Of a stretch of DNA of 64,000 nt, positions 1 to 37,302 are shown piece after piece. Position 1 is the first letter of the stretch, and each line of letters opens with the position of its first letter. Source of the stretch: Felis catus (lineage: Eukaryota); NCBI RefSeq assembly GCF_018350175.1, contig NC_058382.1:14632001-14696000 (forward strand). The letters run 5' to 3'. The position numbers and the translations under genes were made by a program. Under the pieces are notes generated by a model, which saw only the letters and a list, made by a program, of their open reading frames with translations, was not told where the DNA came from and searched no databases.

Positions 1-954
1 GCTTCTAGAGAGGAGGGAAAGCCCACCCCACTCCCAAAAAGGGAGCATAGGGGAGCACGCTGAGCTCCCCCTGCCACTCACTCAATCCTCTTCTCACAGC
101 ACTCAAGTGCTGAGTTTGGTGGAGGCCCAAACAAGCTCTACAGGCCGGGTCAGGGCGCTCAGTAAAAGGAGGTCCAGTCAAGTGGACAGCAGTGGGATAA
201 GTGGGTCCAATCTAGGCATGTGAAGTATTAGCCAAGTCCTGGGATGCAGCTCAAAAGGAGTTCTGTAATCCCCCTTTAACAGAACTGAAAACAGGCTGGC
301 GGCTCACAGTGGGTTCCAGAACAGGACCAGTGGCAAAGGGTCACTGCACCTCTTGTTTCTTCCCCTCCTCTCCTGCCTTTCCCATCAGGAGCCCTCTGGC
401 TAGCCCTGAAATACTGGGGTCACTGGGCAGAGCTCCAGAGCTCCCTCCAGCTGGGGAGGGCGAGGGACACATCCTAATGGGAAGGGCTCTGTACTCCCAC
501 CTCAGGTGCCCAGGCACCAGAAGATCAGTGAAAGAGACCTTGTAAGGCCCGACATGTCGAGAACTCCCATTTCAGCGTGTGATACCACTAATCACACTTA
601 CTAGGAGTCAAGTGCTATTCTGGGTCCACACGCTTATTAAGTCATTTGATTCTCCCTACAGTCCCAGGGCAGGTGTTGTTCTTTACAGCACAGGAAACAG
701 AGGTCCAGGCATGTTAAGTAACTTGGCTGAGGCACTGCTGGCAGGCTAACCACTCATAAAGTAGACCATGGATGGGTCGGGGGACCCACTCCTATGGGAG
801 GAACTTGCAGAAGGCACTCTNNNNNNNNNNNNNNNNNNNNNNNNNNNNNNNNNNNNNNNNNNNNNNNNNNNNNNNNNNNNNNNNNNNNNNNNNNNNNNNN
901 NNNNNNNNNNNNNNNNNNNNNNNNNNNNNNNNNNNNNNNNNNNNNNNNNNNNGG

Positions 955-14987
<14,033 letters not shown>

Positions 14988-17135: not shown

Positions 17136-17587
17136 AACTATAGCTGTTCAGGATGCACCAGAGACCAATTATCAACATCTAGCCTAGCCATCAGTGTCAC
17201 CCGAAAGCTCTCCAGATGGTAATTATTTGCAGCCACGGACATGAGGCACAAGACTCTCCCTGTCCTGTAGGGGTGGGGTGAGGTTGGAAGACACCTGTGC
17301 AATGCTTTGTCCCTTCCTGAAAGAGGAGAGAGGAGGGAGTACCTCAGATGGAGAAGAGGGGCAGGTGGGGGCCAATTTACCTCACCCCCTACCCCTGTAG
17401 GTCAGAGACTTCAGGCTTCAGATTTTCCTCCTTCTCTCTTCCCCTTGGTTCCATGGGCTCCAGATGGGGGCCTCTGGCCCAGAAGGAGAAGGCTTTGGAT
17501 TGGCAGCTGGGACTGGAGACCAAGTGCCCTCTGTCTCACACCTCCCGGGCCCTCCAGCAGTACTAGGGAGTCTGTGTCCTCCCAGGC

Positions 17588-17842
17588 TCATGCTGAGGGC
17601 AGGTGCCTAGCACAAGCCCCCTGTAATAACTCCAAGAGCTTGGCCAGAAAGAGGGGCACGGGTCTCTGGGGATGTCCTTCACAGGGTGGACAAGGACCCT
17701 GGCCGGTCACCCACAGCCGGGACCCCAATGCATCCAGCAAACGCTGTAGCCGGAACACAGCAATCCCCATGGATCGGCCCTCTTCGAACTGGATCACAGA
17801 AAGCTCCAGCCGGAAGCATCCCAGAGTCTCAGCAGGACAAAC
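17588..17842 (-). CDS. IL15L: IL15L coding exon 3 (helices B, C, D)
   Basis: Acceptor ccccacAG|GTT; 84 codons plus TGA; equals the C-terminal part of track ORF 17588..18052(-). Confidence 0.9.
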   Translation of the reverse strand, partial: VCPAETLGCFRLELSVIQFEEGRSMGIAVFRLQRLLDALGSRLWVTGQGPCPPCEGHPQRPVPLFLAKLLELLQGACARHLPSA

Positions 17843-19023
17843 CTGTGGGGACAGAGTGACTTGGTGTCTCTGGGCAAGGGTCTGATCCCAAATCCCCAAA
17901 CCTAGGGTTTCTGAATTATGTCCTGGCATAAGCCCCTTCACCTCTTTGGGCCTCAGTTTCCTCATCTGTAAAACAGAACTCTGAATAATCCCTATCTTCA
18001 GGGATGATGCTAGCCTATACTGTCTGTGCCTGTGTAAGTTAGAAAATGACACTTCTTGGGGCGCATGGGTGGCTCAGTCGGTTAAGCATTCAACTTCGGC
18101 TCAGGTCCATGACCTTGTGGTCCGTGAGTTCGAGCCCCGCCTTAGGCTCTATGCTGACTGCTCAGAGCCTGGAGCCTGCTTCAGATTCTGTGTTTCTCTT
18201 TCTCTGCCCCTCTCTCAAGAAAGAATAAACGTTAAAAAAAATTAAAAACAATAAACTTTTAAAAAATAAAACAGTACTCCTTAAAACACTTCCAAGTGCT
18301 GATTTTGTCGGAACAAGATATTTCATTGCCATCTACCGGAAATTGACAAAAATATCCAGGATGTGGATGCTGACCTTGCTGTGGGATTCTTGTGCAGCGT
18401 CCATCCTTCACATCCATACACGGTGGCCCTATCTACCTCATAGGGTCAGTGTGAAGACTAAGTAAGCTAATATAGTTAAAGCGTTTAGACCAGTACCTGG
18501 CAGGGTGAGCACTATTAAAAATGTCGCTATCATCATCAGTATCTGTTGTTAGGTGCCAGATGCTGTTCTTGGCGTGGGAGACAGCAGCGAACGAAATGTA
18601 TTTGTGATGGCTGGGAGCTGGGTCAGCAGCTGGACAGCCAGAACACCAGCCTGCTGCCTCCTGCCCCAAACATACATGTGTTCTCAGCCTAGTGGAATTT
18701 CCCTAAATTTCCAACTCCAAGTAAAAAGCTAATGAAATACTCACCGAGAGATCATCAGGGGTGTAGAGAGTGCCATCATTTTTGTTTCCCTACAATTGGG
18801 GGCAGGGAACAGAATCAGATCTTGGAAGGGAGAGCCTGACCTTTCCTCGAACGTGCCCCACACCCTACCGCCTCCCTGCCTGTCTGCTGGCTCTCCCCTC
18901 CATCTTCCTCACCAGCATCTTCATGATGGCAACAAGGAAGTAGAAAGGCTCCCGAGGGCAGAGGGGTGATCCTAGGCCTCCCAAGGGCCGTACCAGCAGA
19001 AGGATGGTCCAGAGAGGCCACAT
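17588..19023 (-). CDS. IL15L: Interleukin-15-like cytokine (IL-2/IL-15/IL-15L family), intact 136-aa ORF in three coding exons
   Basis: Exons 19023-18913 (MWPLWTILLLVRPLGGLGSPLCPREPFYFLVAIMKML), 18789-18745 (GNKNDGTLYTPDDLS), 17842-17588 (VCPAETLGCFRLELSVIQFEEGRSMGIAVFRLQRLLDALGSRLWVTGQGPCPPCEGHPQRPVPLFLAKLLELLQGACARHLPSA*). Both introns are phase 0 with GT..AG ends. The DxTLYT, C-x6-CFxxEL and CxxCE motifs align with IL-15. The position between RPS16/PLEKHG2 and SUPT5H matches the IL15L locus as I recall it. Confidence 0.9.
18058..18270 (+). mobile_element. CAN-SINE in the intron between IL15L coding exons 2 and 3
   Basis: Head GGGGCGCATGGGTGGCTCAG and A-rich tail. Confidence 0.85.
18745..18789 (-). 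CDS. IL15L: IL15L coding exon 2 (AB loop, LYTP motif)
   Basis: 45 nt, tAG|GGA...TCG|GTGAGT, encodes GNKNDGTLYTPDDLS. Confidence 0.88.
18913..19023 (-). CDS. IL15L: IL15L coding exon 1 (signal peptide and helix A)
   Basis: ATG at 19023; 37 codons; donor CTG|GTGAGG; hydrophobic leader WPLWTILLLV. An upstream acceptor (cttcttgcttccAG|G) puts the exon start at 19071. Confidence 0.88.
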
Positions 19024-19090
19024 GGGCACCCTGCCCACCCCCCAGGCCTTTTCTGGTCCCAGCCCAGGGTCCTGGAAGCAAGAAGTACAG

Positions 19091-19305
19091 GAACACTTGA
19101 GTGGCTCTGTCGGTTAAGTGTCCGGCTCTTGGTTTTGGCTCAGGTCATGATCTCACAGTTCACGGAACAGAGCCAGTGTTGGGTTTGTACGCTGACAAGC
19201 TCGGAACCTGCTTGGGATTCTCTCTCTCCCTCTCCCTCTGCCCCTCCCCCACCACGCACGTGCGCACAGGCAGTCTCTCTCAAAATAAGTAAGCAACAAC
19301 AAAAA
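19091..19305 (+). mobile_element. CAN-SINE directly upstream of the IL15L first coding exon acceptor
   Basis: TSD AAGAAGTACAG at 19080-19090 and 19306-19316. Confidence 0.85.
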
Positions 19306-19719: not shown

Positions 19720-19936
19720 CTTTTTTCTTTTTTCAATAAATGTTTATTCATTTTTGGGAGAGAGAGGAGAGAGAATGAGAGGGGGAGGGGCAGAGAGAAA
19801 GAGAGGGGGACAGAGAACCTGAAGCGGGTTCTGTGCTGACAGCCACAAGCCTGATGGAGGGCTCGAACGCAGGAACCGTGAGATCATGACCTGAGCTGCA
19901 GTCAGACACTCAACCAACTGAGCCACCCAGTGCCCC
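19720..19936 (-). mobile_element. CAN-SINE
   Basis: Reverse head at about 19936; TSD about TCTACTTCTA. Confidence 0.85.
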
Positions 19937-21269
19937 TCTACTTCTATTTCTGTATCAAGTACTGTATTTCTGTATTTCAAACATCTTGAAATCTCCATGC
20001 TTGTCTGTACCTGTCTGTCTTCTTTCTCTGAGGGCTGGTCTCTCTGCCTCCGAATCGCCGTCACTTGTGTTTTCTGGGTCCATCTGTAATTGATCTTCTG
20101 TCTACCTTCTTTCTCCTCTTCTCTATCGGCCCCTTCTTTGTCTTTCTCCTTCATGTGTGTCCGTCCCTCTCTTGTGCTGTGTATCTGCGTGTGTGTCCTC
20201 CCAGGTCAGCCTCTGGATGCTCCCTTCCTTCACCTCTCCCCTCTCCCAGCCTTTTGGAGCTGGACTCTGGGCTGGAGGATCCTCCCTCCTGCCACAGACC
20301 CACCTACCAATCTCCACCCTGTCTCCATTTTCCAGGCACCAGGTAAGCGACCCTTTGAACCTTGAACCTCGGATTCTGCTGCCAGGGAAACTTTAGAAAC
20401 TGTGGGCCCTCTGCAGCCCTGATAAAGAACCCTTTTGACTGGGAAAGGAGTATCCTGTGTGTGGAGGGGGGGAGCCAAGGGGAACCCAATCCTGAGATTC
20501 CTCAGATGGGATTGGGGGGACTGGGGATGGAGAATACTATGGGGAAGGAGCCTGGAGAGTTGGGTGATTTGGGGGAGTGAAGAGATGATTTGAAGGACCC
20601 CAGAGAAAGAGGGATTTTAGGGTAGAGACCTTGAAGAGGCGGAATCTGGAGGGAGGGTCTCTAAGAAGTGGAGAATTCTGGGAGAGGGAAATTCCAGGGG
20701 AGGCAGTTGCTGGTTAGAGGACGCGCTGAAGGAAACGGAATTCTTAGGAAAGGTAGATTCTGAAGGAGGGGGGTCTGAAAGGGAGAGAAAACTTGTGAAA
20801 GGAGATTCTGGCGGGGACGTTCTGGGAAAAGTGGACTGCGGGCAGTGGGAGATTCTGGGGCCCTTGAGTGGAGGAAGATTCAGAGAAAGAGGGGGGGGTC
20901 TGGTTGAGGGCTCTGAAGAGGAGAGTTCTGGGGGGGGGGAGGCGGAAACTTAAAACGGAAGGAAATTCTGGTGAAAGGTAGATTCTGGGGGAAGGGCTCT
21001 AAAAGGATTAAAAACATTCTGGGAGAGAATTCTCGAAGGAGGTGGGTTCTGAATCCTGAATCTGGGAATCCTGGCTGATTTCCTGCTGTGGGTTCCGTAG
21101 GTGAGATTCCGATGGAGGAGGATTTGGGGAGAAGAGTGTCTAGAGGGCAGGGTGGAGTGTACAGGGGAGGATGATTGCTAGACATGGGGGGCTAAGAAGG
21201 GCCCTTTCCAGAGGGTGAAAAGCGACATTTTGGGTGGAAGAAGTGGAGGGAGAGTATTAAAGAGCCGAA

Positions 21270-24351
<3,082 letters not shown>

Positions 24352-28448: not shown

Positions 28449-37302
<8,854 letters not shown>

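Follow-up and report, generated by a model that had tools for sequence, protein, structure and literature searches.

The window, a stretch of 64,000 nucleotides of Felis catus DNA, carries a real and intact interleukin-15-like gene, IL15L, whose product keeps the residues by which IL-15 contacts IL-15Ralpha and gamma-c, has lost the D8 and N65 contacts to IL-2Rbeta, and bears at this second site (site 2) a face that is remodelled, not blank. The structure of the gene, its orthology, the loss of D8 and N65 and the conservation of E25, R83, R86 and Q126 are directly established here, whereas the function of the protein has to be argued from its relatives. We tentatively favour, at somewhat less than an even chance for the whole chain of steps, the reading that cat IL-15L is a low-abundance, trans-presented agonist that would act via gamma-c and an acid-faced chain other than IL-2Rbeta. 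Earlier publications already contain the gene, the mapping of the residues and the idea of an alternative receptor.

The gene lies on the minus strand and consists of three coding exons with AG/GT borders, all in phase 0, which splice to an open reading frame of 136 aa. Its parts, and the codons discussed below, are the following.

19024..19072, minus strand: probable 5' untranslated portion of exon 1, 49 nt (motif scan)
18913..19023, minus strand: IL15L coding exon 1, 111 nt, residues 1-37
18951-18949, minus strand: E25 codon, exon 1, helix A
18939-18937, minus strand: F29 codon, exon 1, helix A, IL-15 D8 position
18745..18789, minus strand: IL15L coding exon 2, 45 nt, residues 38-52
17588..17842, minus strand: IL15L coding exon 3/4 (fused), 255 nt, residues 53-136 and TGA
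17752-17750, minus strand: R83 codon, exon 3/4, helix C, IL-15 N65 position
17743-17741, minus strand: R86 codon, exon 3/4, helix C
17623-17621, minus strand: Q126 codon, exon 3/4, helix D

The 111/45/255 nt plan is that of tetrapod IL-15L, with splice sites and exon sizes in agreement with cattle (exons 2 and 3/4 are of identical size). The ATG that opens exon 1 has a weak context, with C at -3 and T at +4, and the exon contains a predicted leader peptide, assigned from the layout of Fig. S6A of PMC3894449, followed by C22 and helix A (residues 25-37). Exon 2 carries D42, T44, L45 and Y46 (LYTP motif, in the IL-15Ralpha patch), and exon 3/4 encodes helix B with E65 and E72, then C103, C106, E107 and C129. 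Upstream of the start, a pyrimidine-rich acceptor ends near 19072 and no in-frame ATG is found within 19024..19072; the cattle counterpart of this 49-nt untranslated piece measures 47 nt (PMC3894449). The original prediction, which gave the span as 17588..18960, had located the gene and omitted its first 63 coding bases, that is most of the signal peptide.

Other gene models were rejected as artefacts lacking the leader or helix A: an upstream extension of exon 3/4 (161-aa open frame, 17588-18073), the database models P0001 and P0029, which use another exon 1, and P0010, P0012, P0014, P0016-P0018 and P0021, which enter intron sequence. Among 24 listed sequencing runs, 20 contain the stretch 17400-19200 or part of it, two of the listed rows being recorded as RNA; their word shares of 0.70-0.77 exceed the exonic part, and these word matches are silent on expression and splicing.

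The surroundings are those expected of an IL-15L locus, the gene being found between SUPT5H on one side and RPS16 and PLEKHG2 on the other, with RPS16 and IL15L head-to-head.

2358..2540, minus strand: SUPT5H, Spt5-NGN exon (domain match), synteny marker downstream of IL15L
21595..24351, plus strand: RPS16 (ribosomal S9/S16 family), ATG to TAA, upstream of IL15L (PF00380 match at 24211-24348; exons read)
33574..34765, minus strand: RhoGEF and PH exons, probably PLEKHG2, further upstream (Pfam matches, 2 of 53 ORFs scanned)

The name RPS16 is taken from Fig. S1/S4 of PMC3894449, and the published synteny in the same paper points to PLEKHG2 for the RhoGEF/PH exons.

By its sequence, the product is IL-15L. 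Each exon product is identical by eye to the cat IL-15L that Dijkstra et al. print in Fig. S6A (PMC3894449); they list cat among the species with an intact ORF, and the gene is the same as the published IL-15L of cat, cattle, pig and rabbit in printed cat product, exon sizes and locus. A query with exon 3/4 gave 25 matches out of 25 candidates, several of them named 'interleukin 15-like', with 93% identity to pig and 88% to rabbit IL-15L. The full product differs from the Panthera entry P0002 at residue 12 only. Six cysteines are invariant in 13 mammals: C54, C61, C103 and C106, predicted from sequence to form the family pairs, and C22 and C129, predicted to form an N-/C-terminal pair specific to IL-15L. 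The Pfam IL15 family (PF02372) is matched with 27.7 bits (E 3.2e-06), just below the curated cut-off of 28.5. Run on the whole genome, the same profile found three IL15 exons, which lie on another contig; that the IL15L locus is not in its list reflects a limit of sensitivity and not an absence of the locus.

An AlphaFold2 model (mean pLDDT 81.6) predicts with good confidence the four-helix IL-15 fold, its helices spanning residues 25-37, 55-73, 75-95 and 114-130. All nine Foldseek matches with E up to 0.001 were IL-15 chains. Structural Z scores were 15.3-17.3 for IL-15 chains, against 13.2 for grass carp IL-2, 11.9 for IL-21, 11.2 for IL-9 and 10.7 for IL-4, the best match being an IL-15 chain (Z 17.3, rmsd 1.7, 111 aligned). 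With IL-15 (4GS7, 2Z3Q; PF02372) the cat protein shares the predicted fold (4gs7_A, Z 16.7, rmsd 1.9), two putative disulfides, the residues of the alpha site and Q108, and it differs by an overall identity of only about 25%, the extra C22/C129 pair, the fused exon 3/4, another locus and a conventional short leader. The short-chain bundle, as predicted by the model, and the Gln in helix D, two features of gamma-c cytokines, are both present, the latter (Q126) in 13 of 13 mammals.

All six receptor contacts that had been mapped to human IL-15 hold. D22, Y26, E46, E53 and E89, which face IL-15Ralpha, correspond to D42, Y46, E65, E72 and E107, and Q108, which faces gamma-c, to Q126, as determined by phmmer against PDB sequences (E 2e-4) and by a profile search with 33 sequences (E 5.7e-16). 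Y46, E65, E72 and E107 were each found in 11 of 11 eutherians and D42 in 10. The residue pairs of the IL-15/IL-2Rbeta interface, and the full list of alpha-interface residues, are used here as general background. Three further acids of IL-15, E87, E90 and E93, which we take to be alpha contacts as well, correspond in the phmmer alignment to P105, G108 and Q111, and their loss may lower the affinity for IL-15Ralpha. The claim that cat IL-15L is a ligand of IL-15Ralpha is nevertheless supported, both by the key residues kept and by the bovine orthologue, whose surface display and secretion require IL-15Ralpha (PMC3894449, PMC7658486). Conservation of the gamma-c Gln in IL-15L is described as high (PMC3894449).

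The IL-2Rbeta contacts, on the other hand, are not conserved, as originally predicted. D8 is replaced by F29 in the profile alignment and N65 by R83 in both the phmmer and the profile alignments; among the other site-2 pairs, D61, E64 and I68 become I79, F82 and R86, L69 is kept as L87, and D89 is within one residue of N72 (phmmer alignment). An overlay of the model on 2xqb_A starts at the pair 22/1 and ends at 131/113, offsets which give F29 at D8 and Q126 at Q108. At the beta positions there is hence no acidic or Asn residue, but Phe at the first and, from the alignments, Arg at the second. For the fine register of helices A and C we depend on alignments, which Dijkstra et al. qualify as in places 'highly questionable' (PMC3894449). 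For the register only the IL-15 overlay pairs were used; those with IL-2, IL-4 and IL-21, whose termini aligned loosely, were set aside. A shift of helix A by four residues, which would bring E25 to the D8 position, was rejected, since F29 falls there both in the profile alignment and by the structural start pair. Asn was found at the N65 column in none of 33 aligned sequences. The IL-15 gene of the same genome retains D8, E64 and N65, and the loss is therefore specific to the IL-15L paralogue. That the D11+N65 motif (IL-15 D8/N65) for IL-2Rbeta 'is not found in IL-15L' was stated by Dijkstra et al. (PMC3894449; Immunogenetics 66:93).

The original prediction had gone further, describing the beta contacts as having 'no counterpart' and helix A as having no Asp. 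This is literally true, and the helix A and helix C strings it quoted are present in the sequence, but it is incomplete: the helix A string starts at F27, E25 stands two residues before it, and the invariant R83 and R86 form an Arg pair on the same face as E25. E25 precedes F29 by one helical turn. R86 aligns with R76 of IL-21 (chain position 77 of 2oqp_A) and R83 with K73, in a weak match (E 0.057), while for helix A the register relative to IL-4 and IL-21 is that of PMC3894449. The invariance of E25, R83 and R86 in all 13 mammals aligned, together with the match of R86 to IL-21 R76, makes this a remodelled face, basic and hydrophobic where that of IL-15 is acidic, with a site 2 (Y28/F29/F82) that is more hydrophobic in mammalian IL-15L than in the fish-like sequences aligned. 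Dijkstra et al. regarded an older E/Q7+R68 motif (E25+R86 in cat) as perhaps common to IL-15L, IL-21 and IL-4 (PMC3894449).

Partly similar faces exist in other cytokines. A basic helix C whose two basic residues have the spacing of R83/R86, three positions, occurs in IL-21 (K73/R76), IL-4 (R85/R88) and IL-9 (R91/K94), and a Glu in helix A comparable to E25 is found in IL-4 and IL-13. Only the IL-21 register was aligned here; the parallels with IL-4 and IL-9 rest on the spacing and on a published alignment. In IL-4, Glu9 and Arg88 account for about 80% of the binding energy, Arg85 standing three residues earlier (PMC1479839), and IL-9 grips IL-9Ralpha by a hydrophobic, positively charged face including Arg91 and Lys94 (bioRxiv 2022.12.30.522308). 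IL-21, IL-4, IL-13 and IL-9 differ from IL-15L in having more distant folds, the Z scores of IL-21, IL-9 and IL-4 given above being middling among helical bundles, and in binding no sushi-domain alpha chain.

Conservation was counted on an alignment of 33 hand-picked, full-length-looking sequences, drawn from 25 and 54 matches, in which the marsupial-, reptile- and fish-like groups were defined by resemblance, P0051 alone being tied to a published IL-15L (gar row). P0026, with a C-terminal extension and many odd changes, was excluded from the counts. In the 11 intact eutherians no change is seen at E25, Y28, F29, A32, R83 or R86, while F82 and L87 occur in 10 of 11 and position 79 is I or T. 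A test on nine site-2 positions, fixed beforehand, was not significant (6 of 9 invariant in the 11 eutherians, versus 54 of 108 overall; permutation P 0.11 against a polar background and 0.38 against all positions, Fisher 0.051). Adding a marsupial-like and a platypus sequence gives the set of 13 mammals, for which residues 38-53 were left out of the count, P0033 and P0023 being devoid of a correct exon 2. Across this set, 9 of 28 polar positions in exons 1 and 3/4 are invariant: E65, E72 and E107 for the alpha site, Q126 for gamma-c, E25, R83 and R86 for site 2, and also E57 and H109. Fisher values of 0.026 and 0.005 for the E25/R83/R86 trio are post hoc, come from related sequences and are partly circular, so that its excess of invariance is only suggestive.

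What is added here to the published picture is that an acid at the D8 position is retained in gar-type fish sequences and absent in the tetrapods aligned. Of 13 fish-like sequences, 6 have an acid in this column, the gar-type P0051 among them; all 11 eutherians have F, and each of the 19 tetrapod-like sequences counted has F, G, V or L, so the tetrapod line may have lost the Asp.

In the agonist reading that we favour, IL-15L would fold with IL-15Ralpha inside the producing cell, as its orthologues suggest, and the heterodimer would go to the surface or the medium, likely to be trans-presented. Contact with gamma-c would be made through Q126, and the rebuilt site 2, a surface of the IL-4/IL-21 type with E25, R83 and R86 around the hydrophobic Y28, F29 and F82, would grip an acid-faced chain, the candidates being, in order, IL-21R, then IL-9Ralpha and IL-4Ralpha. 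For orthologues, dependence on IL-15Ralpha is in print in cattle and trout, and STAT5/type-2 agonism in trout only; production of the cat protein, its signalling and the chain it uses are what we infer. That the protein uses a different beta chain, as had been suggested, is plausible, and it is not new: PMC3894449 proposed IL-21R.gamma-c, or IL-2Rbeta.gamma-c with a shift of one turn.

The agonist reading draws on the conserved polar residues of site 2, on the R83/R86 spacing, and on the orthologous trout IL-15La/b, which depend on IL-15Ralpha and conserve the helix A acid, the helix C Arg and the helix D Gln. Together with IL-15Ralpha, they induce pSTAT5 in double-negative thymocytes and raise IL-4/13 gene expression (Yamaguchi et al. 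2020, PMC7658486). From other fish it is reported that recombinant carp IL-15L was active on leukocytes (PMC11611867) and that T cell development is essentially normal in zebrafish il15l morphants (PMC6936713). Several points weigh against the agonist reading. Fish site 2 differs from the mammalian one at the D8 column, and the trout results may therefore not transfer. Given the STAT preferences of the receptors, the STAT5 activation seen in trout fits IL-2Rbeta or IL-9Ralpha at least as well as IL-21R or IL-4Ralpha. The pre-set site-2 test gave no significance, and the conservation of E25 and R86 could have a structural cause, a salt bridge within the molecule that holds helices A and C. No function was found for bovine IL-15L by Yamaguchi et al. 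(PMC7658486), and in eutherians the gene was lost repeatedly and independently (PMC3894449). In the open-access literature searched, no signalling receptor of IL-15L and no function in a mammal was found, nor, in the parts of PMC3894449 covered, any test of feline IL-15L protein or transcripts. A more far-reaching proposal is somewhat more doubtful: in cats and livestock, trans-presented IL-15L would link IL-15Ralpha with another signalling receptor in addition (IL-21R, IL-9Ralpha or IL-4Ralpha with gamma-c) and so give it two opposed outputs, type 1 via IL-15 and IL-2Rbeta and type 2 via IL-15L, with both ligands competing for the same chaperone.

It is rather unlikely, although it fares best among the alternatives, that cat IL-15L is an attenuated, strictly IL-15Ralpha-dependent agonist of IL-2Rbeta/gamma-c, with its helices shifted by one turn, in other words a natural beta-weakened mutein. 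Its predicted fold resembles that of IL-15 more than that of IL-21, IL-2Rbeta is compatible with an acid where E25 stands (the IL-15 of the same genome has D4), and D89 lies near N72, where the change N72D raises IL-2Rbeta binding in IL-15. We take N88 of IL-2 to be equivalent to N65 of IL-15, in part after PMC3894449. IL-2 N88R (BAY 50-4798), the same Asn-to-Arg change, still signals via the trimeric receptor, with a preference of about 3000-fold, and is thus an alpha-dependent agonist (PMC7885892). The pSTAT5 response and the full IL-15Ralpha dependence in trout (PMC7658486) would fit as well, and the option was listed by Dijkstra et al. (PMC3894449). However, both hot spots are changed together (D8 to F, N65 to R), along with D61 (I/T) and E64 (F). 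Felid IL-2Rbeta (P0075) keeps R42, Q70, H133 and Y134, and R83 would presumably oppose an Arg. NANTIL-15 (IL-15 L45D/N65K/L69R) binds IL-15Ralpha normally, has completely lost IL-2Rbeta binding and is silent even in trans (PMC9110858), and trout IL-15 and IL-15L induce opposite gene sets (PMC7658486). Like cat IL-15L, both engineered proteins have a basic residue in place of the IL-2Rbeta-anchoring Asn of helix C, and they keep alpha-chain binding, as predicted for IL-15L; they are, however, point mutants with opposite outcomes, antagonist for NANTIL-15 and alpha-dependent agonist for BAY 50-4798, whereas the face of IL-15L is wholly rebuilt.

Alternatively, the gene could be vestigial in cats, the ORF being intact with little or no protein made and the transcripts being by-products of the RPS16 promoter. 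The start context is weak, the gene stands head-to-head with the CpG-rich RPS16 promoter, and helix D is spliced out in P0022, the only cat entry found in the database. In other species, besides the repeated eutherian losses, dog and bear have a GUG start, most rabbit transcripts lack exon 3/4, a human EST begins near the RPS16 start, and endogenous protein is not reported in the parts of the paper covered (PMC3894449). We consider this unlikely, given that the average dS/dN among intact mammalian ORFs, cat included, is 5.3, above that of IL-15 or IL-2 (PMC3894449), that neither the six cysteines nor the receptor-site residues vary among 13 mammals, and that exon sizes and splice sites are as in cattle.

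The least probable reading is that of a non-signalling competitor, also raised by the original prediction, in which IL-15L would occupy IL-15Ralpha, for the most part in the ER or on cells that express it in cis, and lower the output of IL-15. The retained alpha site would allow it, the Arg at the N65 position resembles the N65K of NANTIL-15, which blocks trimeric-receptor signalling (PMC9110858), a short-signal-peptide isoform of IL-15 sets a precedent by competing for IL-15Ralpha (PMC10883678), the failure to find an agonist function for bovine IL-15L agrees with it, and low, ubiquitous transcripts in other mammals (PMC3894449) fit a housekeeping buffer. Against it stand the agonist activity of the trout orthologue and two further points: the site-2 polar residues, like Q126, are conserved in 13 of 13 mammals, needlessly for a pure decoy unless structural, and expression in other mammals is low where competition is stoichiometric, with a weak start context here; moreover, NANTIL-15 cannot displace trans-loaded IL-15 (PMC9110858), and the changes at E87, E90 and E93 may weaken binding. 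A decoy role is not stated in the text of PMC3894449 that was searched, 'decoy' and 'antagon' have no occurrence in its ten supplements, and 'antagonist' has none in the main text of PMC7658486. Were it true, IL-15L would be a natural counterpart of the engineered IL-15 antagonists.

If the agonist reading is right and IL-15L does not signal through IL-2Rbeta but through another chain, then in cats and farm animals one presenter, IL-15Ralpha, would serve both a type 1 and a type 2 cytokine, and the IL-15L route would have been lost in humans and mice.

The column equivalent to human IL-15 D8, an IL-2Rbeta contact (F29 in cat IL-15L), was inspected in an alignment of 33 hand-picked, full-length-looking sequences, grouped by resemblance. 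Asp or Glu was found there in six of the 13 fish-like sequences, one of which has a doubtful N-terminus, and in none of the 19 tetrapod-like ones. Database entries P0051 (a gar-type IL-15L), P0057 and P0063 are among the fish-like sequences carrying the acid. In the same alignment, the reptile-like P0038 and P0040 are devoid of two acids of the alpha site, with K/A in the E72 column and H/R in the E107 column. IL-15Ralpha binding may be lost in both proteins.

Position 61 of IL-15 encoded by the same cat genome is Q (D in human), and position 71 of felid IL-2Rbeta (P0075) is S (K in human). Since we take these two residues to be contact partners, the D to Q and K to S replacements may be paired changes.

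Gene models of IL15L and its RPS16-facing side involve four features of the window:

17715/17316, minus strand, junction of P0022 (donor within exon 3/4, acceptor further downstream)
19015-19035, minus strand, IL15L start codon region, weak context
19744-20205, minus strand, upstream open frame, source of the P0001 and P0029 N-termini
21200-21600, CpG-rich region on the RPS16-facing side of IL15L, two genes head-to-head

Comparison with the IL15L product revealed that P0022 (UniRef, Felis catus, 125 aa) has an unrelated tail in place of C103-C129, E107, helix D and Q126. Either the entry is annotated wrongly, or it represents a splice form without function, of the kind described in rabbit.

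The ATG context is weak (C at -3, T at +4), and the sequence 5' of the cat start does not contain the in-frame upstream ATG seen in pig and sheep models. In P0001 (Lynx pardinus) and P0029, residues drawn from the upstream open frame replace exon 1 or add to it; these N-termini are probably prediction artefacts of the 5' untranslated region.

The CpG-rich segment contains a minus-strand donor-like motif near 21385. A human EST of IL-15L-pseudogene/SUPT5H begins close to the start of RPS16, according to PMC3894449. A promoter common to IL15L and RPS16 could explain low ubiquitous expression.
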